From positions 2,006,695-2,070,694 of the forward strand of contig CBDCYF010000005.1 in NCBI GenBank assembly GCA_965224065.1: DNA of 64,000 bases, given 5' to 3'. The notes under the pieces were generated by a model that made no database searches, was not told the DNA's origin, and saw only the letters and a list, made by a program, of their open reading frames with translations. A program made the translations under genes and the position numbers. Source of the DNA: Candidatus Multivoradales bacterium (GTDB taxonomy: Bacteria; Acidobacteriota; Thermoanaerobaculia; Multivoradales; JAHEKO01). This document shows, piece by piece, positions 25,197 through 57,803 of the stretch. Within the stretch, counting starts at the first letter, position 1. Each line of letters starts with the position of its first letter.

Positions 25197-26606
25197 CTAG
25201 CCCTTTTTCGCCTTTCTTTTCTTGCGCTCGGCCCACCCGTCGATCGTGCGCTGCCGCGCCCGCCCCACTCCCAGGCCGCCGTCGGGGACATCGGCCGTGA
25301 TCACCGAGCCCGCCGCGGTCACGGCCTCGTCGCCGAGGCGAACCGGCGCCACCAACATCGTATCGCTGCCGACAAACGCCCCGGAACCGATCTCGGTGCG
25401 GTGCTTGTTCTCACCGTCGTAGTTGCAGGTCACGGTGCCGGCGCCGATGTTGGCTCCGGGGCCGATCTGGGCGTCTCCCAGATAAGCCAGGTGCCCGGCC
25501 TTGACCCCGGCCTCGAGCCGTGAGTTTTTGACCTCGACGAAGTTTCCGATCTTGGACGCCGGTCCGATCACCGTTCCGGGTCGCAGCCGGGCAAACGGGC
25601 CCACCCGCGCCTCGGTCTCCACCTCGGCTCCGTCCAGGACCGAATGGGGCTCGAGGACGACCCCGTCCTCGATGACGCTGTCGCGCACCCACACCCCCGG
25701 GTGGAGCACGCAGCCCTCGCCGATGCGGGTCCGTCCGCAAAGCGTCACCCCCGCGTGAATCTCGGTGTCGGCTCCGACCTCGACCGAGGGCTCGATCCAG
25801 AGCCGGTCGGGATCCCAGACCGTCACCCCGGCGTCCTGAAGCTCCTGGGCCCGCCGGCGGGAGAAGGCTTCGCGGGCCCGCGTCAGGTCGGCCCTTCGAT
25901 TGACCCCGAGGGCCTCGGCGGTGTCCGCGAGCCGCTGGAGACGGATGCCGGCGCCGCCACGGGCCGCCGCGGTCAACGCGTCGGTCAGATACAGCTCGCC
26001 CTGGGCGTTGTCGGGACGCAGCCGCTCGAGCTCGGAGAAGATCTCCGGTACGGGCAGCACATAGGTCCCGGCGTTGACCGTCCGGATGGCGAGCTCCTCG
26101 GCGTCGGCGTCGGCGGCCTCGACGATCCGCTTCAAGGTCCCGTCGGGCCGTTCGATGACCCGGCCAAAGGAGCCCGGGTCTTCGAGATCGGCTACGGCCA
26201 TGGACCCCCAGCCCTCTGTGCCGGCGTCGATCAGCGACTCGAGGGTGGCCGGCGTGACCAGGGGCACGTCGCCGGACAGCACCAGCACACGGGACGGCCC
26301 CAGCCGCTCGACCGCCGGTCGAGCCTGCGCCAGCGCGTGACCGGTCCCGCGTTGTTCCTCCTGCACCACCCAGTCGACGCCGTCACCCGGCGTCGACTCC
26401 CGGACGCGATCGGCCTGGTGACCGATCACGCAGACGATGCGCCGGCATCCGCTCGCGCGGGCGGCCTCGAAGACCCACTCGAGGAGGGTGCGGCCTAAAA
26501 CGCGGTGCAGAACCTTGGGCGTCGAAGAGCGCATCCGGGTCCCCTGCCCGGCGGCCAGGACCACGGCGACCGGGCCGTTCCCGGCCTTTTCACCGCCCGG
26601 GCTCAC
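25197..26606 (-). CDS. glmU: Bifunctional UDP-GlcNAc pyrophosphorylase / GlcN-1-P acetyltransferase
   Basis: LAAGQGTRM is the uridylyltransferase motif, and the C-terminal left-handed beta-helix carries hexapeptide repeats. Confidence 0.95.
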   Translation of the reverse strand: MSPGGEKAGNGPVAVVLAAGQGTRMRSSTPKVLHRVLGRTLLEWVFEAARASGCRRIVCVIGHQADRVRESTPGDGVDWVVQEEQRGTGHALAQARPAVERLGPSRVLVLSGDVPLVTPATLESLIDAGTEGWGSMAVADLEDPGSFGRVIERPDGTLKRIVEAADADAEELAIRTVNAGTYVLPVPEIFSELERLRPDNAQGELYLTDALTAAARGGAGIRLQRLADTAEALGVNRRADLTRAREAFSRRRAQELQDAGVTVWDPDRLWIEPSVEVGADTEIHAGVTLCGRTRIGEGCVLHPGVWVRDSVIEDGVVLEPHSVLDGAEVETEARVGPFARLRPGTVIGPASKIGNFVEVKNSRLEAGVKAGHLAYLGDAQIGPGANIGAGTVTCNYDGENKHRTEIGSGAFVGSDTMLVAPVRLGDEAVTAAGSVITADVPDGGLGVGRARQRTIDGWAERKKRKAKKG

Positions 26607-27655
26607 GGATCACCGCCCCCGTGGTCATCTTCGTCGTCGTCGTCTTCTTTCTGGGCCTCGGCTCGCCCGTCCGTTTGGGCCCCGGTCCGGAGCGTCGCCG
26701 TGGCCATCGCGAGCACCGCGCGCCGCAGCTTGGCCGGGTCGTGCCGGATCAGCTCCCCCGACGCCAGCAGATCGGCCGAGGTCACCTCGACTCCCAGACG
26801 GCCCAGGGCCTCGGGATCGACGTGTACCGGCACCGAGCCGACGTCGGCATAGTGGGCCAGCAGACGATCCGGATACGCACCATGGTGCACCAGCACGGTG
26901 TCCACCAGATCGTCTCCGGTGTGCCGGCTCAGAGCTTCCAAATGGTCCACCGCGGTCATGTCTTCGGTCTCGCCGGGCTGGGTCATCAGGTTGAGTGGCA
27001 GGAGGACCCGCGCCTTGCTCGATCGGATCGCTTCGAGGATACCTGGGATCAGCAGATTGGGGAGAATCGAGGTATAGAGAGAGCCCGGCCCCAGGATCAC
27101 CAGATCGGCGTCCCGAACGGCCGAGGCCGCCCGCGGAAAGGCCGCGACCCGCGCCGGCTCGAGCTCCAACCGCTCGATCGGCTCCCCCGAGCCACCGACC
27201 TCCGATTCTCCGTCGTAGAACCGGCCGGATCGTCCCCACGCCTTGAGACGCACGTCGCTCAGAGTTGCGGGCAGGATCCGGCCCCGGACCGAGAGCAGCT
27301 CCTCGGCGGTCAGAATGGCCTGGTAGAAGTCGCCGGTGATGCCGGTGAGTGCCGTCAGAAAGAGATTGCCGAAGGAATGACCGGCCAGCCCCTCGCCGTC
27401 GGCAAACCGGTACTGAAAGAGCTTGGCGACGAGATCCTCGTCGCGGGCCAGAGCCACCAGACAGTTTCGAATGTCTCCAGGTGGCAGCACGCCGAAGTCT
27501 CGCCGCAGGCGGCCCGACGAGCCGCCGTCGTCACTCACGGTGACGATCGCCGTCAGCCCACCGAGCTGGCGTCCGAGAGTGGGTTTGAGCGTCCGCAGGA
27601 GCACGGACAGGCCGCTACCCCCGCCGACAGCGACGACGCGGGGCTTGCTGATCAA
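26603..27655 (-). CDS. yvcK: Gluconeogenesis factor / GlmR (YvcK, UPF0052/CofD-like)
   Basis: VVAVGGGSGLSVLLR and TAIVTVSDDGGSSGRLR are the YvcK/CofD family signatures. It overlaps glmU by 4 nt. Confidence 0.85.
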   Translation of the reverse strand: MISKPRVVAVGGGSGLSVLLRTLKPTLGRQLGGLTAIVTVSDDGGSSGRLRRDFGVLPPGDIRNCLVALARDEDLVAKLFQYRFADGEGLAGHSFGNLFLTALTGITGDFYQAILTAEELLSVRGRILPATLSDVRLKAWGRSGRFYDGESEVGGSGEPIERLELEPARVAAFPRAASAVRDADLVILGPGSLYTSILPNLLIPGILEAIRSSKARVLLPLNLMTQPGETEDMTAVDHLEALSRHTGDDLVDTVLVHHGAYPDRLLAHYADVGSVPVHVDPEALGRLGVEVTSADLLASGELIRHDPAKLRRAVLAMATATLRTGAQTDGRAEAQKEDDDDEDDHGGGDP

Positions 27656-27663
27656 GGCGGGGC

Positions 27664-28296
27664 TCAGGGCTGTTCGAACAAGCCAGCGTACTCTTCGCTG
27701 CCCCGCAGCTCGCCGAAATCGGAGTCGTGGAAGGCGTAGACCCGGTTTTTCGGGTTCATCTCGATCGCGGCCCGTAGCGAGTGTGCAGCGGCCTCGTGAT
27801 CGCCCTGGAGCGCGTGGAGCGAAGCCGCCAGATAGGCGAACCGCTCGTCCTTGCCCTCACGCCCGCCGCGGCGACAGATCTCCAGAGCCTCTTCGAGATT
27901 GCCCCGGTTGCGCTCATAGACGGCGTGCAGAAACGGATCCTCCGGCCCCGACGGGCCCTTCGACGCTTTTTGCTCGGCGAGCAGCAGAAACCCCCGCGCG
28001 CGCTGCGCCAACTGCGGAAAGTCGGTCTCGTCGACGACCCTCTGCAACTGTTTCGCCGCTTGCCGGTAGTCGCCTTTTTGAATCGCCTTGAGACCGCTCT
28101 CGAACACCTTCACCAGCGGGTCGTTCTCGATCCGCATCGGCGTGATGGTGTCCTTGGCCTCGAGCGCCATCTGCTCGAGCTTCTCGGCAACGGTCTCCGA
28201 GTCGGTCTTGAAGCGCTCGGCCAGCTCCTCCAGGCGCTTGATCTTGGCGTATCTTTTGAGATACGTCTCTTCTTCTTTCTTCCAGCGTTTTGCCAT
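27664..28296 (-). CDS. Soluble TPR-like helical-repeat protein of unknown function, encoded directly downstream of mglA
   Basis: 210 aa, all-helical with TPR-like repeats (AAHSLRAAIEMNPKN...). It lies 23 nt after the mglA stop on the same strand. Confidence 0.5.
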   Translation of the reverse strand: MAKRWKKEEETYLKRYAKIKRLEELAERFKTDSETVAEKLEQMALEAKDTITPMRIENDPLVKVFESGLKAIQKGDYRQAAKQLQRVVDETDFPQLAQRARGFLLLAEQKASKGPSGPEDPFLHAVYERNRGNLEEALEICRRGGREGKDERFAYLAASLHALQGDHEAAAHSLRAAIEMNPKNRVYAFHDSDFGELRGSEEYAGLFEQP

Positions 28297-28319
28297 TGAT
28301 TTAAACCTCTATTGCAGGA

Positions 28320-28904
28320 CTAGCGCTTGCGGAGCTCGATGAGAATCTGCTTCGCCACCGATTTCAAGGTGTCGAACACTCCGACCCCCTCCGGAGCGAC
28401 CGCTTCGAAGGTTGGTTCGCGCTTGTAATTCAGCATCCGGTACATCTCGTCGACCGGCATCGCATTGGGCAGGTCCCGTTTGTTGAACTGCAGAGCGAAT
28501 GGGACCGTCAGCAGCTCGAACCCGTGCTCCCTGAGGTTGGCCTCCAGGTTGCGGATCGACTCGACGTTCGCCTCCATCCGCTCCCTCTGACTGTCGGCGA
28601 CAAAGACCACGCCGTCGACCCCCTTGAGTATCAGCTTGCGGCTGGCGTCGTAAAAGACCTGGCCGGGCACCGTATAGAGGTGAAAGCGCGTGGTGAAACC
28701 GCGGATCGATCCCAGGTCGAGGGGCAGAAAGTCAAAAAAAAGCGTCCGGTCCGCCTCGGTCGCCAGCGAGATCATCTTCCCCTTCGCAGCGGGAGGGGTC
28801 TTGTTGTAGATGTACTGCAGATTGGTCGTCTTGCCCCCGAGCCCGGGGCCGTAGTAGACGATCTTGCAGTTGATCTCTTTGGCGGCGTAGTTGATGAAGG
28901 TCAT
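28320..28904 (-). CDS. mglA: Ras-like polarity GTPase MglA
   Basis: The sequence is near-identical in motif content to Myxococcus MglA. The P-loop is [20 protein letters not shown], and the switch/[11 protein letters not shown] and NKRDL G4 motifs are present. Confidence 0.85.
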
Positions 28905-29380
28905 TCGCTAAAAAGAGCGTCGATGTCTTCGTCCGTGATCTCCGAGAACGGGCTCGCTTCGGCTCGGGCGTCCGGGCCGCGCTCGGTCTTGTCCGCCATC
29001 TGATCGAAGACTTTTTCGAGCTCCGCGCTCGCCCTCTTGACCCTCAGTCGTACCAGACCCAAAGACGAGCGCTCATCGAAGATCACCAGCAGGATCGCCC
29101 GCCGAGCGACGATCGAGATGTGGATGTGATCTCTCTGGCCCTCGTGGAAAAGCACCGAGAACTCGCGCTCGCCGATGAGCTTCGCCAGCCCGTCGGTGGC
29201 CGCGACATTGCCGGCGGTTAGCGAAGCCAGCGAGGTCGAATCGAACTCGTCAACATCGCCGGCGGCGGCGATGTGCTGGCCGTTCTTGTCGATCAAGAAG
29301 ACGGCTTTTGCGTTCGAGTCGTGGCGCAGCCGCCGGAGCGCCTCCTCCAGGCGGTCGAACTCTTGTTGGAAGACTTCCAT
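28901..29380 (-). CDS. mglB: MglB, roadblock/LC7-family GAP for MglA
   Basis: Roadblock/LC7 fold length and composition. It lies immediately upstream of mglA with a 4-nt overlap. I chose the internal ATG at 29380 (MEVFQQEF). Confidence 0.75.
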
Positions 29381-29573
29381 CAGCGTCCCGAGATGCGCTC
29401 CACCTGGCCCGCGCAAGATATCACAGAGACAGCAGCGCTCCTGTTGCGGACGCTACAGCGGCAGGGCTTCACGCGACCGCGACACCAGTGGTGCACAGGC
29501 CGTTGATAGTATGCCAATTGCGCCGAAAAACCAGCCGATGTGACGCCCTCCGGCCCCTGAGAATCACGCTCCG

Positions 29574-31248: not shown

Positions 31249-32079
31249 CTACTGCGCCGCGGCCTTTGCGACGGCCTTCTTGGCCGTCTTTTTGCGCCCA
31301 CGCCCGCCACCGCGGCGGCGGCGTGAGACCAGCGCCACGGTGTAGGTGCCCGAGCGCTCGTCCTTCTCCAGCTTGATGATCTTCTGTTGCTCGGCGTCTT
31401 CGAGAAGGTCGGTAAAGGTCGAATAACCGTAGTAGCCCTCATTGAACGACGGCCGCTTGCGCTGCATCGTCTGCTTGACCATCGAGCCCCAGAGGATGTC
31501 CTTGTTTTCGCGCTTGAGCGCGTGGATGGCATCGACCATCAGCTCGAACGCCTCGGCGTTCTTGCTTTTGCCGACGCCGGTGAGCTTGGGGGCTTTCTTG
31601 GCCTGGGCCTTATCGCGCCAGACATCCTCGTAGAAGATGAACTCGTCGCAGTTGTCGATCAACAGCGCCGACGAAGAATTCTTGACCCCGACGCCGATGA
31701 CGCTCTTGTTGTTCTCCTTGAGCTTCGAGACCAGCGGCGAGAAATCGCTGTCCCCCGACAACACCACAAAGGTATCCAGGTGCTCCTTTGAGTAACAAAG
31801 CTCCATGGCGTCGACCGCCATCTTCAAGTCCGCCGAGTTTTTTCCCGAATAGCGCCGTTGGGGGATGTCGATCATCTCGATCCCGGACTCGTGGAACGGG
31901 CGCTTGAACTCACTGTAGCGTTCCCAGTCGCAGTAGGCCTTCTTGACGATGATCTTGCCCTTCTCGAGCAGACGCTCGAGCACCAGCTTGATGTCGAATT
32001 TTTTGATCTCGGAATCGCGTACACCGAGCGCCACGTTCTCGAGATCACAGAACAGCGCGATTTTTCGTTCGTCGTTCAA
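31249..32079 (-). CDS. NYN (LabA-like PIN-related) domain protein with C-terminal OST-HTH/LOTUS-like domain and basic tail
   Basis: IALFCDLENV...VVLSGDSDFSPLV carries the NYN acidic residues. The C-terminal ~80 aa match the LOTUS pattern (MVKQTMQRKRPSFNEGYYGYSTFTDLLE). Confidence 0.75.
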   Translation of the reverse strand: MNDERKIALFCDLENVALGVRDSEIKKFDIKLVLERLLEKGKIIVKKAYCDWERYSEFKRPFHESGIEMIDIPQRRYSGKNSADLKMAVDAMELCYSKEHLDTFVVLSGDSDFSPLVSKLKENNKSVIGVGVKNSSSALLIDNCDEFIFYEDVWRDKAQAKKAPKLTGVGKSKNAEAFELMVDAIHALKRENKDILWGSMVKQTMQRKRPSFNEGYYGYSTFTDLLEDAEQQKIIKLEKDERSGTYTVALVSRRRRGGGRGRKKTAKKAVAKAAAQ

Positions 32080-32954: not shown

Positions 32955-33551
32955 TCAAACTCGGCCGAAGGCCCGATCGGTCAGAGCCCGAGCCGCCTCC
33001 AGCATGGCTTCTTCCTCGGCGCCACCCGCCAGCGTCAAACCGATCACCGCATCGTCGTCGCAGGTCCAAAGCTGCCCCGTGTTGAGGGCCGAAGCCGAAC
33101 TGAAGGCCCACCACGCCTCGCTGCCGAGGTCGGCGATGTTCTTGGGGGCCGCACCGGTTCCATCCCGGGCCGCGCGCATGTCTCGGCAGATCTCGGACAT
33201 CTTCCGCGCTCCCTCCTGCTTGACAAAAGCTGTCAGGCTGAGGCTCGTCTGGTCCAGCTCGTCGGTGTCCCACAGGCAGTACATCGAGCCCATGGCGCGA
33301 CCAGCCTGAACCGGGTTTCCCACCAGCTCCGACACCTCGGTGTCCTCGATCAGGCCGCAGACGTCGACTCCGAGCTTGCGCCCCGCCCGCTTTGTCTCGG
33401 CGGTGGCGACGATCTCTGAGAGAGCCGGTGAGAGACCCGGCTCACCCTCCGTTGCGGCGTCCTTGTCGGATCCCCCGCATGCGGCCAGCAAGAGGACCAC
33501 GCCCACCGTCGACGCAGCGACCCGCCAGCGTTGTTGCATTCCTAGTCTCAT
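32955..33551 (-). CDS. Cys-containing lipoprotein of unknown function (last gene of the surface-module operon)
   Basis: The lipobox is LLLAACGG, with four Cys in the mature part. It lies 50 nt downstream of the giant ORF on the same strand. Confidence 0.5.
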   Translation of the reverse strand: MRLGMQQRWRVAASTVGVVLLLAACGGSDKDAATEGEPGLSPALSEIVATAETKRAGRKLGVDVCGLIEDTEVSELVGNPVQAGRAMGSMYCLWDTDELDQTSLSLTAFVKQEGARKMSEICRDMRAARDGTGAAPKNIADLGSEAWWAFSSASALNTGQLWTCDDDAVIGLTLAGGAEEEAMLEAARALTDRAFGRV

Positions 33552-33600
33552 CTTCTCTACCTCCCGAGCTCTCTTTTGCGTCCGCCGCGCCGGGACCCCC

Positions 33601-36600
33601 TCACGGCCTCGACCCCAGTGTGAGGGTCTTTCGCTTCTCGCCGACGACCCGCACCTGTTCGAAGATCTCGGCCGGGGCCCCCTTCACTCGCACCGTGTAA
33701 ACACCCGCCGGAACCGCCACCGGATCCCCACCGACCGCGCCGGTCGCCAGCACCGCCCCGTCGTGGTCCACGACGTCAAACGAGCGGCTGACGGCTGCCA
33801 CCATCGATTCCTCGAGCGAGCGAGCATCGCCGGCATCGTAATACCGCCCGCCGCCCAGTTCGGCCCATCGCCGAAATCGCGCCCGGGCGGCTTCCCGGTC
33901 GCTAGCGTCGACATCGAAGCCGACGATGTTGAGCTCCACGTCGTATCCGCGCCGGCGGAGCGCCTCGATCGCCGCCTCCACGTCGCCGCCGCACGACTCC
34001 TCGCCGTCGGTGACCAAGACCACCCTCTTGGGCCCGGGCCCCTCTCCGAGGTCGCTTCCGACCAGCTCCAGCGAGGCGGCAATCGGTGTCCCCGAGAACG
34101 GCTTGGGCTCGACCGCCGCCAGCACGCGGGCGGTCTCCGCGGCATCGAGCGGCCCGAGCGGCATCTCGAGATCGGTCCGGCAGGCTTTGGCTTTCCGATT
34201 GCCGAACACTCGCAGCGCGAACGGCGTTCCGGGGGAGAGCACATCGCTGACGAGCTGACGAAGCACCCGTTTGGCGACGTCGATGCGAAGCACGCCCCCG
34301 ACCTTTCGATACATGCTCCCGGAGGCATCGAAGATTACCTCGACCGATTCTCCGGCCGTGCCCGGCGCGGCACCATCGGTGGCAGCGGCGACGACCTCGA
34401 TGCTCCCCGGCCCCGCCGGCTCCTCAAACCCGGTCTCTACGAGAACGCGGTAGCTCTTGGGCCGGCGCAAGTAGCACGACGCTCGGGCAAAGCCGACATC
34501 AAAATGGCCGATGGTCCGGGCCGAATCATAGAAACCGCCCCCGACACCCGCCCAGCTCTGCATCAGATCCTGGCTGGCGGCCGACCTCGGCGAATCGTGC
34601 TCGATCGAGGGTGTGTGCATGGTGAAGATCTGCGGCGAGGTCTGTGCGAACGTCTTCCAGAGATCCGTCGTAAGCGCGTAGCCGTTGCTGAAAGCATCGG
34701 TAATGAGCACGATCGCCCTGGCGCCCGGCCTCTTCTCCAGTGCGACCCCGGCGGTCAACAGGGCCAGCTCCGAGTTGCTGGAGAAGGCCTTGGCCGTGTC
34801 GTGCCGGTTAAGCGCCGACATCACCTCTGCTGGATCGCCCGACCATTCCTCGAGCAGAAATCGCGGCGGCTTGTCGAACGGCAGCAAGTTGACGACCTCC
34901 CGGCCGGGCTTGACGGCGCGCGCGAACTGAGTCGCCGCGGCACGGATAAAGTCAGTGTACGGGCCGATGCTGGCGCTGGTGTCCCAGGCAAGCACAACCG
35001 AGCGCGGTGGCTCCTCCAGCCGCAGGTAGTAGCTGCCCGGGGCGACATCAGCGGTCAGCTCGACCCGCTGGTAGGACCGTTCGGACTCGCTCTCCACCGG
35101 GCGTCCGCGCGGGTCTTGCAGACTCCACGAGAACGCGACCGCCGGATCGCCTTGCAGGGTGATGCGAATGGCGTTGTGGCCTTCAGGAACCTCCACCCGG
35201 TACCAGTCCACGTCCTCCTCCACAAGCACCCGCCCCGACAACGCCCGGCCTGGCGACAGCGGCTGAGCCCGCTCCCGGCTGTCGTTGTGATCGGCCTCGG
35301 CGAGAACGGACGTTCCCGAAGCCGGCCGGCCGGCCTCGAAGATCGCGCGGCGGCTCATGAATCCCCACTCGCCGAGGATGGACCTGTAGTCGGCGTCCGC
35401 CCCCTGCTCGAAGATCCTCAGGGTCTCCGGGTACCGGTAAGGTGTCTGCGGCCGCAGATCCCCGGCGGTGAATCGAACAAAGCGCGCCCATGCCGGCTCG
35501 CCGAGCGTCAGGCGCTCGACACCGTCGCCTCCGAGCCGCCAGGTAGCCAGCGTCTCCCAGGGCCCCAACGGGCTCTCCGTCGAAGCGGCCACCTCGATCT
35601 CCTCAAAGCCCAGAGCCCTCGAGCTCCGGCTCTCCGACGGGACCCACTCGAAGCCGGTGATCCTGGCCGCCCGATCGTGGTGAAAGCCCACCACCCAGCT
35701 CGCGGTGTCCTGGTCGTCGGCCGTAGTCGCAAACGTCCGCTCCGCTGCGACCGAGAGGATCGGGTGCTCGGCCGATCCGACACCGATGACGGTCCCGAAC
35801 TCCTCGGTCCCAATCAGCGGATCGGACCAAGCGACATGGCCGCCGAGCGACGGCTGGGCAATGTCCCAGGGTTCGGAGCGCAGCCTGGTCCCGGCAGCGG
35901 CGACGAGCTTCCACTCCCCGAGCGCCACCCCGCGCCCTCCGCCGTGGCTGCTGCCGAGCACAAGTCTCGCGAACCGGGCCTCGACCGGCTCTTCGAACGC
36001 AAAAACCTGCTCGCCAGGAAGCGGCTCGAGACGGCCGGTGAGGACCTCCTCGAAACGCTTGCCGTCGAGCGATGTCGAGACGGAGAATTCGGCAAGCTGC
36101 TCAGTCGCGCCTTCGATCGAGCGCCCCAGCGGATGGAGCAGCGCTCCCCACAGCTCCACCGGTTCTTCCCCGGCCAGATCGACCGTGATCGCCTGCTCCG
36201 TCTCGAACCGAGTCCGGTCTCGCAGCGGGATCGCGAGCCCATCGAAAAGCTCCCCCACAAAACGATCCTCGCCTTCCGCCGCCGCCCCCAGCGCCGGCCA
36301 AGCGACGTTGAGCCCTCCCAGCAGGCGGTCGGGCAGGGGCCACGCCTCGCCGGCCGCGCGGGGCTCCGCCCCGCACTCCGGCTGCAGCTCCACCGAAGCG
36401 GTCGCGACCGCGCCGCTTGCGGTCCGGGCGGCAACCGTCAGCAGAACCGGCTGGTCGTCCCGGGCGTCCGGCAGGATCTCCACCTGCAGCGGAATCGCCG
36501 CCGACTGGGCGGGCCCGACCTCGACCACCTCGCGTAGCAACCGACCCTTCCATGCAGCATCGCTGGTGGCGACTTCAAAACGCAGCGTCTGTATCGTCCC

Positions 36601-38343
36601 GGTCAGATTCTGGACCCAGAGACCGAGGTCGAGGACCTGGGACTGTTGCCAGTAGGCGGCGGCTGAATCGATTCGCCCTTTGATCCCCATCACCACCGCC
36701 GGGGCAACGTCGCCGGCTTCCGCTTTCGACACCCGGTCGACATCCGCCATTTTCTCGGCCGGGGTCAGAAAGGGATCGAGCTGCTCGAGCCCTACTTGAT
36801 AGAAACCTTCGAAGGGTTCTCGTGGCCGGACCGAGATCCAGTGATCGCCGGGAAGCAGCCATCCTTCAAAAATCGCCGGTTCGCCGGGCGCGGAGCTCTC
36901 CGACCGGGTTCCGCCAGTCACGTCGAAGACCACGCGGCCGTCTTCCGGCGGTTCCACCCGGACCCGCACCGGTTGCTCGGCGGCCAGGTGAAAACGGTAC
37001 TGATCGACATCCCTCGGATCCGTCAGCAGCCCGATGCGTGGAGCGCCAACGCGCAAGGTGCCGGCCTGAGCGGGCAGGTGATTGGGCTCGAACTCGCTCA
37101 AACCGGGCGGACGCACGCCGGGGATCTCCACATCGCCCGCAAGGTGCCGCGACGCTTCGAGTCCGGCTTTGGAATCCGCCGGCCCGATGGCCACGATCTT
37201 GAGCAGATACTCCGAGTCCTCTCCCTCGACGGCGATGAAGTGCTCGCCGGGAAGAAGCAGAAGGTTGTCCAGCCGCACCCGGCGCTCACCCGAGGCGCCG
37301 GCGCTCGAACCGGCATTGCCCCCCGCATCGTAGTGGCGCATCGCCCGGACCGGCTGGTCTCTCGCCAGCACCTGCGCACGCCAGAGCATCGGCTCACCCT
37401 CGACCTCGAAACGGTAGACGTCGGTTTCAGCACCCACCAGTCGCCCACGGACCGTCCGTTTCTCATCGAGCGGAAACGCCCCCGCGATGGTGTCGTTCGG
37501 TTCGAGCTCGCGGCCGTCTTCTCCCTCGCCCGCCGCCTCGACTCGCAGGAGGTACGGCGCGGGGGTTCGGTCGGCACGGGCCAGCTCGATCACCAGCTCC
37601 CCGGCCGGCGAGGACAAGTCGTCGAGAACCATCCGGCCGGCCGCATCGGGCTTGCGCTCGGCCAACAGGCTCCCCTCAGCGTCCAGGACCTTGAGGCTGG
37701 TTCGCAAACCCAGAATGGTTTGCGCGGACAGGCGCCACGTGTGGGGTGCCTCCCCGGGCGGCACCGACCACCGGATGGCGTCGGAGGAGCCGGTCAGGTC
37801 CCCGGACAAGACGAACGCGCCGATCCGCGCGACCGCCTCTTGCGCCGGATCGCCGGGCTCTCCGCCGACCGCCTCCGGCAGCGCCCCGGCCAGCCTCAGG
37901 TCGAAACGGTAGGGACCTTCGCCGCTCCCGCCGACGCCGAGCAGGTAGCGGCCGGGCGCGAACAGCAGCGGCCCCGACTCCATCGACCGGACTCCCTGGA
38001 CATCCAGAGTAAAGACCTTGCTCACCGCCCCGCCGGGTTCGCCGGCCAAAAGGACATCCAGCTTTGTTCGCTGGCCCGGAACGCCCTCGAGCTCGAGCGT
38101 CCACAGCGCGGGGCTCTCGCCGGCGACAGTCCACCAGAAAAGATCTTGATCGCCGCTGCCGAGCTCTCCGGTGACGCACATGGCGACTTCGAGGCGCTGC
38201 CCCTCGTCGGGCGTGTTGTTGGGCTCGGTGTCGGCCGCGCAATCGGCGACTTGCCCCGCCGCCAAGCCCGGCGCGAGCACAAGCGCCAAAAGGCAGACCG
38301 ACATTCGGAGACCGCCCGGGAACCTCGCTGCGGGCCGAAACAC
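33601..38343 (-). CDS. 1580-aa secreted multidomain protein: N-terminal PPC-type repeats, two galactose-binding-like (F5/8 type C) domains, a further PPC repeat, and tandem C-terminal vWA domains
   Basis: The signal peptide is MSVCLLALVLAPGLAAGQ. Repeated E(P/F)N(N/D/H)T...D(V/Q)YRF modules are present. WxRFVRF/GEWKL patterns indicate the galactose-binding fold. The two vWA cores are VLAWDTSASIGPY... and VIFDASGSMYRKVGG...VVLVTDGEE. Confidence 0.7.
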   Translation of the reverse strand: MFRPAARFPGGLRMSVCLLALVLAPGLAAGQVADCAADTEPNNTPDEGQRLEVAMCVTGELGSGDQDLFWWTVAGESPALWTLELEGVPGQRTKLDVLLAGEPGGAVSKVFTLDVQGVRSMESGPLLFAPGRYLLGVGGSGEGPYRFDLRLAGALPEAVGGEPGDPAQEAVARIGAFVLSGDLTGSSDAIRWSVPPGEAPHTWRLSAQTILGLRTSLKVLDAEGSLLAERKPDAAGRMVLDDLSSPAGELVIELARADRTPAPYLLRVEAAGEGEDGRELEPNDTIAGAFPLDEKRTVRGRLVGAETDVYRFEVEGEPMLWRAQVLARDQPVRAMRHYDAGGNAGSSAGASGERRVRLDNLLLLPGEHFIAVEGEDSEYLLKIVAIGPADSKAGLEASRHLAGDVEIPGVRPPGLSEFEPNHLPAQAGTLRVGAPRIGLLTDPRDVDQYRFHLAAEQPVRVRVEPPEDGRVVFDVTGGTRSESSAPGEPAIFEGWLLPGDHWISVRPREPFEGFYQVGLEQLDPFLTPAEKMADVDRVSKAEAGDVAPAVVMGIKGRIDSAAAYWQQSQVLDLGLWVQNLTGTIQTLRFEVATSDAAWKGRLLREVVEVGPAQSAAIPLQVEILPDARDDQPVLLTVAARTASGAVATASVELQPECGAEPRAAGEAWPLPDRLLGGLNVAWPALGAAAEGEDRFVGELFDGLAIPLRDRTRFETEQAITVDLAGEEPVELWGALLHPLGRSIEGATEQLAEFSVSTSLDGKRFEEVLTGRLEPLPGEQVFAFEEPVEARFARLVLGSSHGGGRGVALGEWKLVAAAGTRLRSEPWDIAQPSLGGHVAWSDPLIGTEEFGTVIGVGSAEHPILSVAAERTFATTADDQDTASWVVGFHHDRAARITGFEWVPSESRSSRALGFEEIEVAASTESPLGPWETLATWRLGGDGVERLTLGEPAWARFVRFTAGDLRPQTPYRYPETLRIFEQGADADYRSILGEWGFMSRRAIFEAGRPASGTSVLAEADHNDSRERAQPLSPGRALSGRVLVEEDVDWYRVEVPEGHNAIRITLQGDPAVAFSWSLQDPRGRPVESESERSYQRVELTADVAPGSYYLRLEEPPRSVVLAWDTSASIGPYTDFIRAAATQFARAVKPGREVVNLLPFDKPPRFLLEEWSGDPAEVMSALNRHDTAKAFSSNSELALLTAGVALEKRPGARAIVLITDAFSNGYALTTDLWKTFAQTSPQIFTMHTPSIEHDSPRSAASQDLMQSWAGVGGGFYDSARTIGHFDVGFARASCYLRRPKSYRVLVETGFEEPAGPGSIEVVAAATDGAAPGTAGESVEVIFDASGSMYRKVGGVLRIDVAKRVLRQLVSDVLSPGTPFALRVFGNRKAKACRTDLEMPLGPLDAAETARVLAAVEPKPFSGTPIAASLELVGSDLGEGPGPKRVVLVTDGEESCGGDVEAAIEALRRRGYDVELNIVGFDVDASDREAARARFRRWAELGGGRYYDAGDARSLEESMVAAVSRSFDVVDHDGAVLATGAVGGDPVAVPAGVYTVRVKGAPAEIFEQVRVVGEKRKTLTLGSRP

Positions 38344-38352
38344 GACCGCTCC

Positions 38353-40758
38353 TCAGTGGCTGGCCGCCAAAGAGGCGCCCAGGACCCGGAGGAGGATCCC
38401 GACGATCCCCCGGATAATCCTCGAAAGCAGCATCATGGAGCCGCCGTAGGCGCCGACGCCGGTCACGGTCCCGGCAACACACAAACCCGCAGCGATCATG
38501 TCGAGAGACCGTGCGCTCGAGTAGACGCACAAGGCCCCGCTGATCAGATTCGCGACGATCAAATACTCGGTGATGCTCGCGCCCCAGCCGTTTTCGCCGA
38601 TGGCCAGGATCTCGCCGGTTGCGGGATCGAATCGCCACCACCCCCGGTCGCCGGTTCCTCCTCCAGCGTCCGTCTGGGGTGCGACGAGCCAGAATCCCCT
38701 CGCCGTTTCCCCCTCCGCGCGCGCCAACGTGTCCGGCGGAAACCGGGAGCCCTGGCTCCGAACGTCGTCCTCGTCGCGAAGCAGGACCCACGCATCAGCG
38801 CCGAGAGACGTCGAGAGCCGATCCGCCAGGTTGTCGTAGGTCCGGCATGGCAGCATCCCGCTGGTCGGATCGCAGGCCTCGTCGCCCAACAGCGCTTCCA
38901 GGTTCGAGTCGGCGACTCCCTGAAAGAGGGCCTGCCGGCCGTCGGCCGGCAGGGACGCCACGCGATTGGCCACGATGTCAAAAGCCTCCAGGCGCACCGG
39001 ATTGCCAGACGCATCCGTCCTTAGTTGCTGATGGAACGAGAAGACATTCGGCGAGCCCAGAAAAACGGACTCCCCCTCGCCGGACACCCCGTGCCGCAAA
39101 GCCTCGAGAGACAGAAGATCCTGGCGCGGCATTTCAGGCTCCCGACCGGCGTTCGGGTCGCGCGGCGCGCCTGCCGGACCCCTGACCGCGTCCAGGATCG
39201 CCTGCCGCTGTTCGAGCACCCTGCGGGTCACGAGATCGGATACATAGGCTTCGGACAGCCGCGAACCGACGATCAGGATCTCGGTCGTCCCCAGGACCGC
39301 CAGCCGCCATAACGCCCGATCCGTTTCGGTCTCGGCGGACCCGGGTCGGCCGCCGCTCCGGCGCGTGGCGGCTCCGATGAGATCGAAGATCTGCCGGCGG
39401 GTCACCTCCGGTTTCTCCCCAGGCACACGGATCTCATACTCGATCCACTCGGCCGTCAGCCGGCCCGGTTCCTTCACCACACCGGCCCCCTCCCCAGCTA
39501 CCCCACCCAGCCCGGCAATGGCGCCCGCCAGACCACCCGCCTTGCGCTCCAACGCCTTCCCGACCTGGGCCGTGGCGTTGAGCGCCTCTCTCGCCGGACT
39601 CAGCTCGCAGGTGTCCCTGTATGCCTGACTCATCACAGCCTGGGAGCCGATGTCCAGTACGGGGACCCAGAGGTCCTGCTCGCCCACGGTCTCCACGAGA
39701 CGCCGGCCCGGGTCCGCGGCGCTCGACAGATTCAGATCGGACGGCCAGCTCGCCGGAACGTGTCTCAGGGTCACGGGGCGGCCGACGAGCTCGGCGGGGG
39801 TCAGGGGCGCGCTCTGCAGCAAGGTGTGCTCCACCAGCGCCTCGCCGTTCCAACACTCGAGAATCAGCCGAATCCGGACTGTGTGCAGCACGTCCCCTCC
39901 GAGTTGGGAGAGCCTCTCGATTTCGACCGTTCGGTGAGCCGCGGTGGCCGCCCAGCCGACCGGTGCGTTGGGATAGCTCGGATCCAGATCGATCCATCGC
40001 CTGCCGTCCTGCACCCGTACCCACCAGTGGTCCTCGAGGGCGCCGATCTGGCGGCGGCGAAGACCTTCGGCGGCGCCTTCGGGCAGCGGACCGATGACCT
40101 CCGCCAGGAACTTCGCCTGTTCTCGCGTACGTTTCCGCGCCTCGGTCCGCAAACGTTCCACCGCCTCGGCGGTTTGCCGGCCGGCGTCGAGCAATCGAGG
40201 TTCGTCCAGACCGAACTCGGCGGAGTAGCGGTGCAGCTCGGCGAGGGCTGGCCCATCCGAACCATCCGCCTGGTTCCCGGCTCCGCCGGCCGGAACGGGC
40301 CGCGCGAAGGCCATCAGGTCGCTGGCCGCCTCGGGCAGCAGCCGACCGTTGGCGAGCCTCGTTTCATAGCCCACCTGCCGGAGCAGGGTGCTGAGCAGCA
40401 GGGCCCGATCGAGACTGTTGCCTCTGCGGTCCATCAACACACCCACCGGCCCGCGTAGAGCGCCACGGTAGGGCACGAGATGGGTGTTGTCGCGCACCCA
40501 TTCGAACAGCGGCTCGACCTCCGGATCGACCAGGTCCAGAATCGCCTCCGGATCGAAAGTGTCCCGCGGGATCTCCGCGGCTGCTTTTTCCAAAGCGTCA
40601 AAAACACGCTCGGTTTGCGTGACCCGAGCTTCGGTGGCCGCTGCGGCCTGCGCCTGCGCGACCCGAGCCGCCACCGGCCCCGGGACCAGAGCAACGTTCA
40701 AAGTCAGGAGACACAGCACCACGTGGCTGGTGAATCTGGACGCGATCGAGTGGTTCAT
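38353..40758 (-). CDS. 801-aa membrane-anchored transglutaminase-like-fold protein with Ser replacing the catalytic Cys; C-terminal TM helices
   Basis: An N-terminal signal/anchor is followed by GNSLDRALLLSTLLRQVGYETRLANG. This matches the transglutaminase-like core G-C-x-x-x-A-x-L-x-x-x-L-R-x-x-G-I-P-A-R-x-V-x-G, but with Ser at the nucleophile position. A large helical extracellular region follows, then 2-3 TM helices at the C-terminus. Confidence 0.55.
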   Translation of the reverse strand: MNHSIASRFTSHVVLCLLTLNVALVPGPVAARVAQAQAAAATEARVTQTERVFDALEKAAAEIPRDTFDPEAILDLVDPEVEPLFEWVRDNTHLVPYRGALRGPVGVLMDRRGNSLDRALLLSTLLRQVGYETRLANGRLLPEAASDLMAFARPVPAGGAGNQADGSDGPALAELHRYSAEFGLDEPRLLDAGRQTAEAVERLRTEARKRTREQAKFLAEVIGPLPEGAAEGLRRRQIGALEDHWWVRVQDGRRWIDLDPSYPNAPVGWAATAAHRTVEIERLSQLGGDVLHTVRIRLILECWNGEALVEHTLLQSAPLTPAELVGRPVTLRHVPASWPSDLNLSSAADPGRRLVETVGEQDLWVPVLDIGSQAVMSQAYRDTCELSPAREALNATAQVGKALERKAGGLAGAIAGLGGVAGEGAGVVKEPGRLTAEWIEYEIRVPGEKPEVTRRQIFDLIGAATRRSGGRPGSAETETDRALWRLAVLGTTEILIVGSRLSEAYVSDLVTRRVLEQRQAILDAVRGPAGAPRDPNAGREPEMPRQDLLSLEALRHGVSGEGESVFLGSPNVFSFHQQLRTDASGNPVRLEAFDIVANRVASLPADGRQALFQGVADSNLEALLGDEACDPTSGMLPCRTYDNLADRLSTSLGADAWVLLRDEDDVRSQGSRFPPDTLARAEGETARGFWLVAPQTDAGGGTGDRGWWRFDPATGEILAIGENGWGASITEYLIVANLISGALCVYSSARSLDMIAAGLCVAGTVTGVGAYGGSMMLLSRIIRGIVGILLRVLGASLAASH

Positions 40759-43415: not shown

Positions 43416-44855
43416 ATGACGATCACCCGCCGCGGCTTTCTCGCCGGCGCCGGGGCCCTGGCCGCGTCCGCCTTGGGCTGCCGGAGCCCCGAGCGGCGCT
43501 GGGATGTGTGCATCATCGGGTCGGGGTTTGCCGGCACATTCCTGGGGCTCAGGACCGCGGCCGGCGGTCTCGATACCGTCATCCTCGAGGCCGGGACCAA
43601 GGGTGCGAGACCCCGCAGAGGGGCGGCCGGTGAGTTCTTCAAGTACCGGACCAGCGGCGAGATCGATTATTCGGTCAACGCCACCCGCGCCATCGTGGTC
43701 GGCGGGACGAGCACGCTCTGGGGCGGAGTGACCACCCGGCTCTGGCCGAGCGATTTTCGGCTCCAAACCGAGCACGGCCTGTGGGTCGACTGGCCGATCG
43801 GCTATCGGGATCTCGAGCCCTACTGGTGTGAGGCCGAAGAGCTCCTGAAAACAAGAGGCGGCGCCGTGGCGCCGGAGGCCGAGCCGCCGAGAGACTGCGA
43901 CTACCCCACGGGCTTCGAGCAGAGCCTGGAGAGTCCCGCGGTCGAGATCGAGGGCGCGGTGCGGCCGTTCTTTCGTATCGCCCGGTCGAAACGAAACGGC
44001 CGGGCCTTGAGGCTCGACGAGGGAGAGACCGAGGCCTTTGAGACCCACCGCTTGGGGACACTGCTTTCCGACCTTCAGGTCACCCGCATCGTGACCCTCG
44101 ACGGCACCTCGATCGACCACGTCGAAGCCCTGCCGATGAAGGGCGGCGAGCCGCAGATAATTCGCGCCCGCTACTTTGTCGTGGCCGCGGGTGTCATCGA
44201 GAGCGCCAGGCTTCTGCTGATGTCGCGCTCCCAGTGGTTCGAGAACGGCCTCGGCAACCAGCACGGCGAAGCCGGTCGCTACTTCACCGTCCACCCGAGC
44301 TATCAAACGCGCTTCCGCACCACCCGACCGATCAACGTCGGGGGCGGCCAGTTCAGGACCTGCGCGCTCAACGACGACTACAGACGCCGCGGCCTCAATG
44401 CCACCCAATTCCAGCTAGACGTCCAGCGGGCCGACGACCTGCGGTGGCGGGTCCAGCCCGAGATTGAGCCGCAGAGCGACAATCGGGTCACGTTGAGCGG
44501 CGCCACGGATTCCAGAGGAGTGCCCTTCCCCGATATTCGACTCACCTATTCCGATCGCGATCGGGAGACCTTCCGGCGCTGCCGAGCCTTTCTCGACGAG
44601 ACGCGGGCGGATCTGGGCGCGGTCGAGAGCACGGTTCGCGACCACGACCGCTGGCGCGCTCACCCCTCAGGGACCTGCCGCATGGGGTTCGACCCGACCA
44701 ACGGCGTCGTCGATGCCGACAACCGGGTCTTTGGTCTGAGCAATCTCTTTGTCTCGGGCGCATCGACCTTCCCCACCGCCGGCACCGCCAACCCGACCAA
44801 CACCGTCGTCGCCATGACCCTGCGTCTCGGCGACCACCTGTTGCGCCTCGCCTAG
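43416..44855 (+). CDS. GMC-family flavin oxidoreductase with Tat signal
   Basis: The Tat motif is TRRGFLAGAGALAASALGC, and the FAD-binding motif is VCIIGSGFAG. The C-terminal GMC signature is AHPSGTCRMG...VFGLSNLFVSGASTFP. Confidence 0.8.
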   Translation: MTITRRGFLAGAGALAASALGCRSPERRWDVCIIGSGFAGTFLGLRTAAGGLDTVILEAGTKGARPRRGAAGEFFKYRTSGEIDYSVNATRAIVVGGTSTLWGGVTTRLWPSDFRLQTEHGLWVDWPIGYRDLEPYWCEAEELLKTRGGAVAPEAEPPRDCDYPTGFEQSLESPAVEIEGAVRPFFRIARSKRNGRALRLDEGETEAFETHRLGTLLSDLQVTRIVTLDGTSIDHVEALPMKGGEPQIIRARYFVVAAGVIESARLLLMSRSQWFENGLGNQHGEAGRYFTVHPSYQTRFRTTRPINVGGGQFRTCALNDDYRRRGLNATQFQLDVQRADDLRWRVQPEIEPQSDNRVTLSGATDSRGVPFPDIRLTYSDRDRETFRRCRAFLDETRADLGAVESTVRDHDRWRAHPSGTCRMGFDPTNGVVDADNRVFGLSNLFVSGASTFPTAGTANPTNTVVAMTLRLGDHLLRLA

Positions 44856-45724
44856 GATCTCAACGACACGGCCCACGCCGAAGGAAGCCACCTCGGATCG
44901 AAGACAAACAGGTGAGCCAGGATCATTCCCAACGTGAGGTCCGCGAAGTCCACCACGAGGGCAATCCCGAGATGCATCACCAGCATCCACACCCACGCAA
45001 TCCGTCGGCCGGCCCGAAAAAGAGCAAGCGGCAAGGCCGCCAGCTCGCCCACCAGCGCGAACCAGGTCATCCCGGCGAGTATTGGGGCGGGCAAGCCCAC
45101 TAGCAGGTCGCGCACAAACCAGTCGCGAGCCAGCGGATTGGTAACCAGCATCGCCATTGCCTCACCGTTGAGCCAGGATGGCGCGGTCAACTTCATCACG
45201 CCGCTGTACGTATAGCCTGCCATCAGCGCGACAAACCCGGCGCGCCAGAGCCAGCGCGGCATCTGCCAAGATTCTCTGGGTCGACAGTGGCCCGGTGAAA
45301 GACCTTCGCCGGGTGGAACCAGCGCCACGAGCACCAAGAGAAGGCCCACATAGGGCAGTGCGGGGTTGGCAATCAGCAGGTTGCGGTTAAAAAGACACGT
45401 CCAGCCGTACCACAGCACAAGCGCGGTCACCGGACGCCAGTAACCCGCTGCGAACACCAGGGCGAGGAGACAAAGCAGCACCAAGGCCGCCTGGATCACT
45501 CCCGGCCCGTCCAGCACGGCAAGAAGGTTCGGGAACAGTCCGTGGATCGGGCTGACCGAGGGATCGGGGTAGACACCACGGTCGCTGAAAAGCTCGCTCC
45601 CCCACGGCACGAGGTGGGCGAAATGAACCGCCAGATAGAGACCCAGCAGCCAGCGAAACAACGCGAATTGATAGGCCGATTGTGGGACGGGAGCGCTCAC
45701 GAACATTCCGGCCGGAGTACCCAT
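44852..45724 (-). CDS. HTTM-domain membrane protein (vitamin-K-dependent gamma-carboxylase-like)
   Basis: A multi-TM protein whose N-terminal FRWLLGLYLAVHF region matches HTTM-domain proteins. I chose the start at the internal ATG (MGTPAGMF), which has a GGAG RBS. Confidence 0.6.
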   Translation of the reverse strand: MGTPAGMFVSAPVPQSAYQFALFRWLLGLYLAVHFAHLVPWGSELFSDRGVYPDPSVSPIHGLFPNLLAVLDGPGVIQAALVLLCLLALVFAAGYWRPVTALVLWYGWTCLFNRNLLIANPALPYVGLLLVLVALVPPGEGLSPGHCRPRESWQMPRWLWRAGFVALMAGYTYSGVMKLTAPSWLNGEAMAMLVTNPLARDWFVRDLLVGLPAPILAGMTWFALVGELAALPLALFRAGRRIAWVWMLVMHLGIALVVDFADLTLGMILAHLFVFDPRWLPSAWAVSLRS

Positions 45725-46176
45725 CGGTCGCTCCGTCCGCGGGTACGCGTAACGATCTCGACGGCAAGGTCCTCGGTTCGAGCCGGCAGGCCCAGCTCGC
45801 GGCGAAGTGGCCCGTCCGACGTCAGGCCATAGCAGTACACCGGTTGCCAAAGCTCCTCGGAGAGGCGTGGCGCATAGGCCAGTGCCGCTCCATAGACGTT
45901 CCGCCGGTTGTACGGACCCTTCAGGCGCGAGTAGACCTCCGGCGTGATCTCCAACCGTTTCTCATCGTTCTCGTCGCGCCAGACAAACGCGAAGCTCGAC
46001 GAGAAGGTCTCCAGACCCTCGACGTCGCTGAACACTTTTGGCCTCGGAGAGACACCCCAGGCCGCCGCGACACCCACCAACGGCCGCCATCCCGCGACGT
46101 CTCCGATCATCTGGGCCAACGCTACGACCAGCAGCGCTATGCCAGCCAGGTCACGCCAGCTCGTTTCAGACTTCAC
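45697..46176 (-). CDS. Membrane-anchored protein of unknown function (GTG start)
   Basis: The ORF has high GC3 bias and a single N-terminal TM helix (LAGIALLVVALAQMIG). It is bracketed by the HTTM and hydroxylase genes on the same strand. Boundaries are uncertain. Confidence 0.35.
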   Translation of the reverse strand: MKSETSWRDLAGIALLVVALAQMIGDVAGWRPLVGVAAAWGVSPRPKVFSDVEGLETFSSSFAFVWRDENDEKRLEITPEVYSRLKGPYNRRNVYGAALAYAPRLSEELWQPVYCYGLTSDGPLRRELGLPARTEDLAVEIVTRTRGRSDRWVLRPECS

Positions 46177-55248: not shown

Positions 55249-55325
55249 GCACCGATAGCTCAATTGGATAGAGCACCTGACTACGGATCAGGAGGTTGGG
55301 GATTCGAGTTCTCCTCGGTGCACCA
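55249..55325 (+). tRNA. tRNA-Arg (anticodon ACG), with encoded CCA
   Basis: The 7-bp acceptor stem is GCACCGA/TCGGTGC. The D-arm is AGCTCAATTGGATAGAGC. The anticodon stem CCTGA/TCAGG encloses loop CTACGGA. The T-arm is GGGGATTCGAGTTCTCC, and the 3' end is ACCA. It closely resembles E. coli tRNA-Arg(ACG). Confidence 0.85.
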
Positions 55326-55439
55326 TTTGTTTCAATCACTTACGGCTTCGTTGAACGTCGGCGTCAGCACTCGCCGGTGGAGCCCGAGGGTGCCAAAAAG
55401 TCAGCCGACTAGCTTAGCCTCCCTTTATACGGGCCGCGC

Positions 55440-55740: not shown

Positions 55741-55913
55741 CGGATTGCTCAGCTACTACCGGCGCGAGGCCGCGCCACCTGAGCTGTGGGCCGATTTATT
55801 TGCGCCCTGCGGACGGCGACGCTGTTGAGCGCAGTTGGGAAGGAAGATGCTAGACTCCCTCTGACTCCTATACAGATAAGGTCTTCCTAACCGCCCGAGG
55901 AGGTGCAACAGGA

Positions 55914-56699: not shown

Positions 56700-56714
56700 A
56701 GTAAGGCAACGGTT

Positions 56715-57764: not shown

Positions 57765-57803
57765 TGGCCTCGAATTACCTTGCCGCAGTTTTTTGATGGA
57801 GAA

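Follow-up and report, generated by a model that had tools for sequence, protein, structure and literature searches.

The stretch of DNA analysed here, 64,000 nucleotides (nt) of contig CBDCYF010000005.1 from Candidatus Multivoradales bacterium (hereafter the window), carries on its minus strand two adjacent genes, A and B, that probably specify a new cell-envelope system. Gene A encodes a membrane protein with a transglutaminase-like (TGL) core in which serine stands in place of the nucleophilic cysteine, and gene B an exported multidomain protein that carries two von Willebrand factor A (vWA) domains and a small beta-sandwich at its C-terminus. The unit that is conserved across phyla consists of these two genes, an A-family gene and a gene for a partner bearing the tail of B. 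The reading that we tentatively favour is that A, facing outward from the membrane, docks the vWA tail of B and probably also processes it as a Ser-His-Asp enzyme. The combination of TGL and vWA domains is not unprecedented as a theme; at its centre here stands a very large and previously unnamed family, that of A.

Gene A (38353-40758; 801 amino acids (aa), ATG start) and gene B (33601-38343; 1580 aa, GTG start) are followed by a third gene, C (32955-33551; 198 aa, ATG start), which is recognized from its open reading frame (ORF), lipobox and ribosome-binding site as encoding a predicted lipoprotein. All three, and all of their features given below, lie on the minus strand, and the ORF list bears out the co-directional operon layout described in a first-pass annotation of this DNA, with gaps of 9 nt from A to B and 49 nt from B to C. 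Shine-Dalgarno-like purine-rich motifs accompany each start (GGGGAG for A, GAGGAG for the GTG of B and GGGAGG for C). The GC content at third codon positions of A and B (0.80-0.81) is in line with that of the other genes of this 66% GC window, and because both proteins belong to large homologue families the two ORFs are genuine genes and did not arise by chance. Cytochrome c, sulfatase and GMC oxidoreductase genes lie 5' of A in the opposite orientation, and a convergent UbiX gene lies 3' of C. This orientation of the flanks on both sides makes A, B and C a self-contained transcription unit. A promoter and terminator scan gave nothing informative inside the A-B-C operon.

Protein A consists of an N-terminal signal or anchor, an ectodomain of about 700 residues that includes the Ser-type TGL core, and C-terminal transmembrane (TM) helices; an AlphaFold2 model of it has a mean pLDDT of 82.7 and a pTM of 0.87. 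Residues 9-31 (40666-40734) form a hydrophobic signal peptide or signal-anchor, as judged from hydropathy and from a model helix at 7-23. Residues 83-144 (40327-40512), which include the motif GNSLDR, form the N-terminal half of the TGL core, and here Pfam Transglut_core (PF01841, clan CL0125) matches at 29.5 bits against a curated cut-off of 23 (E 1e-6). A helical insertion of about 100 residues (145-240; 40039-40326), modelled as helices 142-151, 169-182, 186-222 and 229-242, runs from the nucleophile helix to the histidine strand, and the second half of the core, DHWWVRVQDGRRWIDLDP with His244 and Asp259, follows at residues 241-262 (39973-40038). Most of the remainder (residues 263-735; 38554-39972) is a beta-rich ectodomain without a recognizable solved relative, for which Foldseek against the PDB returned no match at E<=0.001. 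It carries the conserved motifs FDIVxN, QGVxDTNxE and WWRxDPxTGxxLGxG, the last at residues 707-727 (38578-38640), and the residues invariant in the A family are W364, W438, D594, G614, E621, W707, W708, G715 and G726. Finally, residues 736-801 (38356-38553) hold two to three TM helices (736-750, 754-767 and 773-798), supported by a hydrophobic span at 736-798 and by the model, at low pLDDT; Cys744 and Cys760 in this region are kept in at least 90% of homologues. Both the TGL core and the C-terminal tether had been proposed in the first-pass annotation, and each finds support here, the core in the above-threshold Pfam match and the modelled fold, the tether in hydropathy and the model helices. 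Given the N-terminal hydrophobic segment and the C-terminal TM helices, the ectodomain is predicted to face outward.

The A family is large: a word-indexed search gave at least 403 full-length homologues, in no source with a functional name, and an exhaustive profile search gave 6134 clusters at 50% identity, 2733 of them with E<=1e-30. NCBIfam contained no family matching A, and Pfam reported nothing on it beyond the TGL core. Sequence searches of the PDB with a whole-A profile, a TGL-region profile and the 67-aa core yielded spurious coiled-coil matches and sub-threshold matches to N-acetyltransferase and DRC7 only. Some homologues are longer than A, with an N-terminal domain of 6-7 TM helices in place of the signal or anchor, or with a Pro-rich tail past the last TM helix. 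These extensions account for the long forms, for which a fused vWA domain, or a fused copy of the neighbouring secreted protein c4 described below, had been considered and was rejected.

The substitution at the nucleophile position is a property of the family and not a peculiarity of one sequence. In the model of A, Ser115 (codon AGT, 40414-40416), which lies within the motif GNSLDRALLLSTLLRQVGYETRLANG at residues 113-138, is the first residue of helix 115-128, whereas His244 (40027-40029) lies in strand 243-251 and Asp259 (39982-39984) follows strand 254-258. As modelled, this arrangement has the geometry expected of a papain/TGL triad, and the fold itself is of the TGL/papain type, with the nucleophile position at the N-terminus of a helix that packs on the sheet carrying His and Asp. 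Landmark residues R, G, R and G stand at +12, +15, +19 and +23 from Ser115, a spacing that we take to be that of the canonical cysteine motif GxCxxFA...R..G...R...G. Of a first set of 100 aligned homologues 99 have Ser115, and every one has His244 and Asp259; in a larger set the counts were 216/222 for Ser115 and 222/223 for each of His244 and Asp259, and cysteine never occurred at the nucleophile position. The family thus departs from the Cys-His-Asp triad of the TGL superfamily in having Ser for Cys, with His and Asp retained, as had been suggested from the single sequence of A. Exceptions at the Ser position read GSN or GSH (both with a Ser one position earlier), GNT, GNA, GNG or, in a divergent form, ANA. 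They include Wenzhouxiangella (GSH) and the loci L070 (GNA), L068 and L075 (GNG) and L087 (ANALDQ).

Protein B begins with a Sec-type signal peptide read from its sequence (residues 1-30; 38254-38343), with a charged n-region and the hydrophobic core LLALVLAPGLAAG. Four beta-sandwich modules of the pre-peptidase C-terminal (PPC) or collagen-binding type follow (residues 35-525; 36769-38241), then an Ig-like beta-sandwich (545-657; 36373-36711) assigned from an all-beta model and a weak FixG_C match that recurs in homologues, two discoidin or F5/8 type C-like (galactose-binding-like) domains (665-985; 35389-36351) and a fifth PPC-type module (1012-1112; 35008-35310). The first vWA domain, an alpha/beta fold in the model, spans residues 1113-1300 (34444-35007). 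The second, together with the C-terminal beta-sandwich, makes up residues 1330-1580 (33604-34356), the tail module common to all partner classes. Pfam reported VWA_2 in two stretches and VWA on B, with F5_F8_type_C and PPC near threshold only; the same families scored above threshold in B homologues, 72 of which are about 1700-1900 aa long. NCBIfam gave only a weak vWA match (TIGR03436).

To compare the repeated modules, the B family alignment was cut into segments and the segment profiles were matched with hhalign. The N-terminal PPC modules matched one another at 98-99% and the PPC-matching module 1012-1112 at 96.7-98.5%, the two discoidin-type domains matched at 97%, and the two vWA domains at 97.9%; the fourth PPC module also has a high-confidence model. 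Each vWA domain carries the DxSxS...T...D signature of a metal ion-dependent adhesion site (MIDAS), and metal binding is predicted on that basis. The residues are D1121, S1123, S1125 and T1215-D1216 in the first domain and D1339, S1341, S1343, T1419 and D1446 in the second, which also has a Cys1388-Cys1451 pair; all are invariant in the B family. B therefore contains PPC (PF04151), F5/8 type C (PF00754) and Rossmann-like vWA folds, and the segment matches, MIDAS residues and Pfam results together show that the PPC, discoidin and tandem vWA calls of the first-pass annotation were correct. The PPC modules number five in all, and the Ig-like domain and the small C-terminal beta-sandwich come in addition to what had been called. 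The head of PPC/collagen-binding-type and discoidin-type domains appears built for polymer binding, for example to glycans or proteins.

Linkage of the two families was surveyed in 80 loci, one genome per species, in 78 of which a clustered A-family ORF was present. Partners were sought with a profile of B residues 1330-1580 and accepted within about 2 kb. Such a tail-module partner adjoins the A-family gene in 50 of the 78 loci, on the same strand in every case, and in 44 of these 50 the gap is below 600 nt; an overlap of a few nucleotides is frequent, and the two genes are probably translationally coupled. The 80 loci come from Acidobacteriota (Thermoanaerobaculia, Vicinamibacteria, Aminicenantes and Terriglobales), Deinococcota, Methylomirabilota, Planctomycetota, Synergistota, Gemmatimonadota, Chloroflexota and Alpha-, Gamma- and 'Delta'-proteobacteria, with Mesorhizobium prunaredense and Thiofilum flexile as cultured carriers, and the paired loci span more than 10 phyla. 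Gene order alternates by lineage, A preceding B as in the window or B preceding A, and the linkage is kept in both. A smaller survey that started from the partner found an A-family gene next to the tail-module gene in four of eight loci (Wenzhouxiangella, L081; Thioalkalivibrio denitrificans, L082; a Bauldia metagenome-assembled genome (MAG), L084; and L087).

What stays constant in the partner is only the last vWA domain and the C-terminal beta-sandwich (B residues about 1330-1580), in which the MIDAS residues of the second vWA domain and the Cys pair are kept in at least 90% of 54 partner tails. The N-terminal heads are interchangeable and include giants with PPC and discoidin domains, PPC domains with an alpha/alpha-toroid-like region, discoidin-only forms and beta-propeller forms, so the earlier view of the giant as a whole as the partner has to be narrowed to its tail. 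In three loci (L027, L033 and L038) two or three paralogues that have the tail in common but differ in their heads lie downstream of a single A-family gene, which would suit a dock or processing enzyme that they share. Short entries named 'VWA domain-containing protein' (240-450 aa) were seen at L085-L088, the gene at 8001 in each; they look like C-terminal pieces of frameshifted giants or of giants disrupted by insertion sequences (IS), not stand-alone proteins. A subtype of A found in Gemmatimonadales and Acidobacteria is 1100-1350 aa long, with a multi-TM N-terminal domain or a Pro-rich tail. Its recurrent neighbours are the OmpA-like family c10 and the uncharacterised families c11 and c14, and no vWA-tail partner was detected for it (L043, L046, L058, L066, L070-L072 and L077).

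The first-pass annotation had presented A, B and C as a three-gene module, and here it needs revision. C is the Cys-containing lipoprotein that had been described (lipobox LLAAC, Cys25; a match to Pfam DUF3558 lies below cut-off). Among the loci examined, a C homologue occurs only in L001, the closest relative, a Thermoanaerobaculia 'Multivoradales' MAG. Comparison of window positions 33601-40758 with L001:10001-17693 gave identities of 50% for A, 68% for B, the most conserved, and 46% for C. No other gene within 10 kb on either side is shared by the two genomes, so at that distance A, B and C move or are retained together as a cassette. The proposed neighbourhood check for a conserved triad thus came out in favour of the A-partner adjacency and against C, which is a local accessory outside the conserved core. 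The observation made in the first-pass annotation is confirmed, and its interpretation is partly supported, because the module comprises two genes and we infer its function.

Other lineages have accessories of their own. A secreted protein of about 470 aa (450-500), c4, with no Pfam match, is encoded beside the TGL/vWA pair in about 24 loci (among them L004:4990-6408, L006, L011-L013, L015, L016, L021, L022, L024, L027, L029, L033-L035, L038, L041, L081:17748-19196 and L082:17930-19429) and is fused into the vWA partner in L044, L052 and L017; a search for c4 in the window did not find it. A CsgG-like lipoprotein, of the curli secretion channel family and in some cases with a C-terminal zinc ribbon, adjoins the A-family gene in five loci (L010:8813-9775, L017, L019, L040 and L052), of which three are labelled Planctomycetota or Phycisphaerales, one Tepidisphaeraceae and one a PVC-group MAG; in L088 a CsgG-like gene (9026-9667) adjoins the partner giant. 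These neighbours hint that some lineages have a dedicated route for export across the outer membrane, and OmpA-like envelope proteins are neighbours in others.

Searches of NCBIfam, PADLOC, the PDB and the literature produced no match to a described system, in agreement with the first-pass annotation. PADLOC matched none of A, B and C, for which reason an anti-phage defence role was dropped, and the literature searches, PMC5898192 included, gave no description of the A-B pair. The flanks were scanned with Pfam for most genes within about 15 kb on each side (genes from 21 to 63 kb), and neighbours across the 80 loci were annotated for recurrent families, with rarer clusters and most single neighbours outside the scan. 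Within this scope neither the window nor the related loci yielded MoxR, DUF58, GGDEF/EAL or type I secretion system (T1SS) genes, and no AAA+ ATPase was found among the scanned flanking genes, as had been noted before. Of the systems described so far, LapG/LapA and the MoxR-vWA-TGL triad come closest, and A-B lacks defining features of each.

In the Lap system LapG, a periplasmic TGL cysteine protease, acts with giant adhesins (LapA/CdrA) and the cyclic di-GMP (c-di-GMP) receptor LapD (PMC3032545, PMC4359373, PMC4694147), and its cut decides whether a giant adhesin that bears vWA is retained or released (PMC3032545, PMC4359373). The likeness to A-B lies in the 'tether and cut' logic and in the folds, and between A and LapG it is at the level of the fold only. 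LapG is a small soluble Cys protease, whereas A is an 801-aa integral membrane protein with Ser and with about 470 extra residues of uncharacterised fold, and only PF01841, not the LapG-type (BTLCP) Pfam family, was reported for it. A LapD-like receptor with HAMP, GGDEF and EAL domains is likewise not found near A-B, nor are T1SS genes. In the Lap system the protein that is cut is an RTX adhesin that leaves the cell through a T1SS and carries an N-terminal retention module and a di-alanine cleavage site, whereas B has a Sec signal peptide and, by Pfam, no RTX repeats; a LapA-type retention module and T1SS signal were not searched for in it.

The MoxR-vWA-TGL system is an operonic set of three genes with a YebA-like TGL protein (Zhang & Aravind 2012, PMC3495828), and it resembles A-B in pairing a membrane TGL protein with a vWA protein in an operon and in its wide, patchy distribution. 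Its AAA+ ATPase has no counterpart at the A-B locus or among the annotated neighbours of related loci. Its TGL domain, which has Cys, is part of a cytoplasmic loop in a protein with 8 TM helices, whereas that of A is predicted to face outward and has Ser, and the partner of A is an exported multidomain binder, neither a DUF58-type vWA protein nor a MoxR fusion. Serine-containing TGL domains have been described in menin and in a CCDC135/DRC7 subset (PMC3495828). Both are eukaryotic and cytoplasmic or nuclear, have no vWA partner or membrane anchor, and are related to A by fold only. The Ser-type TGL domains of menin and DRC7 act as scaffolds. The PeiW/PeiP pseudomurein endoisopeptidases and further TGL cysteine peptidases of bacteria (3isr, CPR-C4) are small Cys-His-Asp enzymes of 15-18% identity, likewise without anchor or vWA partner. 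B was compared with surface vWA proteins (BatB, Mfa5 and the pilus tip adhesins RrgA, GBS104 and SpaC); neither a sortase motif nor pilin domains nor partners of the Bat operon (MoxR, DUF58, TPR) turned up in Pfam scans of B and the flanking genes. The combination of five PPC, two discoidin-type and two vWA domains, and the linkage to a Ser-type TGL membrane protein, are specific to the A-B system.

The results from which a mechanism can be drawn are the gene pair, its domain make-up, the conservation of triad and MIDAS residues, the conserved adjacency, and export signals on both proteins; from these we infer the topology, the A-B contact, the catalysis and the biological role. A and B would constitute a two-component module working outside the cytoplasmic membrane, a setting suggested by the signal or anchor and TM helices of A, by the signal peptide of B, and by the CsgG- and OmpA-like neighbours elsewhere. 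A would be held in the membrane by its N-terminal signal or anchor and C-terminal helices and would expose its ectodomain, about 700 residues long, on the outside. B would be exported by Sec, its variable head binding polymers, and its constant vWA-MIDAS and beta-sandwich tail would be the part paired with A. The TGL cleft of A may engage this tail or an adjacent segment, and A, as a Ser-His-Asp hydrolase of peptidase-like or isopeptidase-like type, may act on B and so decide the fate of the binder, which would be either kept at the envelope or released or matured. The logic would be that of LapG/LapA, but in membrane-bound form and without c-di-GMP receptor, T1SS or ATPase. An ATPase could not work outside the cell. 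A hydrolytic role is proposed because Ser, His and Asp are jointly conserved in more than 200 diverse sequences and because the nearest structural relatives are enzymes.

Several observations weigh against a dock that is also an enzyme. Serine is less conserved than His and Asp, variants with Ala, Gly, Asn or His at its position keep both of these residues, and some Ser-less members still have a vWA partner. Such members, with His, Asp and partner in place, show that Ser is dispensable in some lineages. Furthermore, the PDB sequence searches yielded no residue-level alignment of A on a Cys-type TGL enzyme, and the contact between A and B is suggested by gene linkage alone. The linkage itself is incomplete: about one third of A-family loci, mainly of Gemmatimonadales/Acidobacteria types with OmpA-like neighbours, have no tail-module partner within 10 kb, and four tail-module loci (L085, L086, L088 and L089), some of them IS-disrupted, have no A gene nearby. 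The Ser-less members are what one would expect if A were a pseudo-enzyme anchor, its dead TGL domain serving as a binding module that tethers the vWA tail of B to the membrane, perhaps through a MIDAS-acidic contact, with no cleavage; the system would then be a modular, non-covalent hook in the membrane for exchangeable binders. This possibility, in which A would resemble the Ser-type TGL domains of menin and DRC7, is nearly as likely as a Ser-His-Asp enzyme. The invariant acidic residues D594 and E621 lie outside the TGL core and could feed the invariant MIDAS of the partner, and many of the conserved Trp and Gly motifs of A are far from the triad. Nevertheless, it would be unusual for an inactive site to keep Ser, His and Asp together in nearly all of more than 200 diverse members, and no bulky or hydrophobic replacement of Ser occurs in the core A family. 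Inactive TGL domains, moreover, usually lose the whole triad, as stated for CC2D2A and CEP76 (PMC3495828).

The incomplete linkage could also mean that A and B are independent envelope proteins that are merely syntenic, for example as co-regulated surface genes. This is improbable, since all 50 partners are on the same strand with short or overlapping gaps, and since the linkage persists where gene order is inverted and extends over more than 10 phyla, while not even the two closest genomes have their flanking genes in common. It is equally improbable that A uses a Ser nucleophile for cross-linking or transacylation, joining B covalently to an envelope polymer or to other B molecules to form a surface matrix. 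A TGL fold with an intact triad, the many polymer-binding-type domains of B and the OmpA-like, peptidoglycan-associated neighbours in some lineages would suit such an activity, but we know of no precedent for a Ser-type transglutaminase. In addition, no conserved Gln/Lys-rich substrate motif was noticed, although no search was aimed at one, and with partner heads that vary freely a common acceptor is not evident. Less probable than either is that A and B belong to a MoxR-vWA-TGL system whose AAA+ ATPase (and DUF58 protein) is encoded elsewhere in the genome. A membrane TGL protein and a vWA protein are a known operonic pair with MoxR (PMC3495828), and the view of the genome is limited to 64 kb. 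However, no MoxR or DUF58 gene is present among the scanned window genes or the annotated recurrent neighbours of the 80 loci, the nucleophile is Ser and not Cys, and the vWA domains of B are not of the DUF58 type. In the predicted topology, moreover, the TGL domain of A and the whole of B are exported and hence beyond the reach of a cytoplasmic ATPase.

The dock-and-enzyme reading can be extended, more doubtfully, to the whole A family, whose members would be new extracytoplasmic papain-fold Ser-His-Asp enzymes, each cutting or covalently transferring its cognate vWA-tailed binders, in a 'dock and process' system independent of ATP and c-di-GMP and present in thousands of lineages. If this were true, a system for display and release of adhesins would have gone unnoticed across more than 10 bacterial phyla. 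If the pairing is functional, it would define a very large envelope system without a name, with more than 6000 sequence clusters, and would extend to the cell exterior the TGL-vWA link seen in cytoplasmic MoxR systems and in LapG/LapA. Its carriers are frequent among Acidobacteriota, Planctomycetota, Gemmatimonadota, Aminicenantes and further phyla of soils and sediments that have received little study, and include cultured Mesorhizobium, Thiofilum, Thioalkalivibrio and Wenzhouxiangella. The system would also offer a natural test case for a serine nucleophile in the papain/TGL fold. Swappable heads on a constant tail suggest general display of polymer-binding or enzymatic modules at the cell surface, which bears on attachment, matrix building and substrate capture by abundant environmental bacteria.

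The surroundings of the operon in the window include several further genes. The cytochrome c, sulfatase and GMC oxidoreductase genes were considered as functional partners and set aside, being divergently transcribed and missing from L001 and all other loci. Directly downstream of the module (31249-32079, minus strand) is a gene for a NYN ribonuclease-domain protein with OST-HTH/LOTUS by Pfam, and upstream of it (44852-45850, minus strand) an ORF with an HTTM (vitamin K-dependent carboxylase-like) domain; no link of either to the module was seen. About 4 kb from the module a minus-strand row at 26603-29416, upstream of GlmU, GlmS and UvrD/PcrA, encodes an MglB-like Roadblock/LC7 protein (28901-29416), an MglA/Arf-like small GTPase (28320-28904), a TPR protein (27664-28296) and a CofD/YvcK-like protein (26603-27655). 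Farther away, a tRNA-Arg(ACG) gene (55249-55325, plus strand) is followed by a stretch of low GC content (0.51 at 56-58 kb against 0.66 for the window) with three ORFs that have no Pfam match (55914-56699, 56715-57764 and 57804-58466) and then by a subtilase S8 gene (58828-60615). The region 55249-60615 looks like a small island inserted beside the tRNA.

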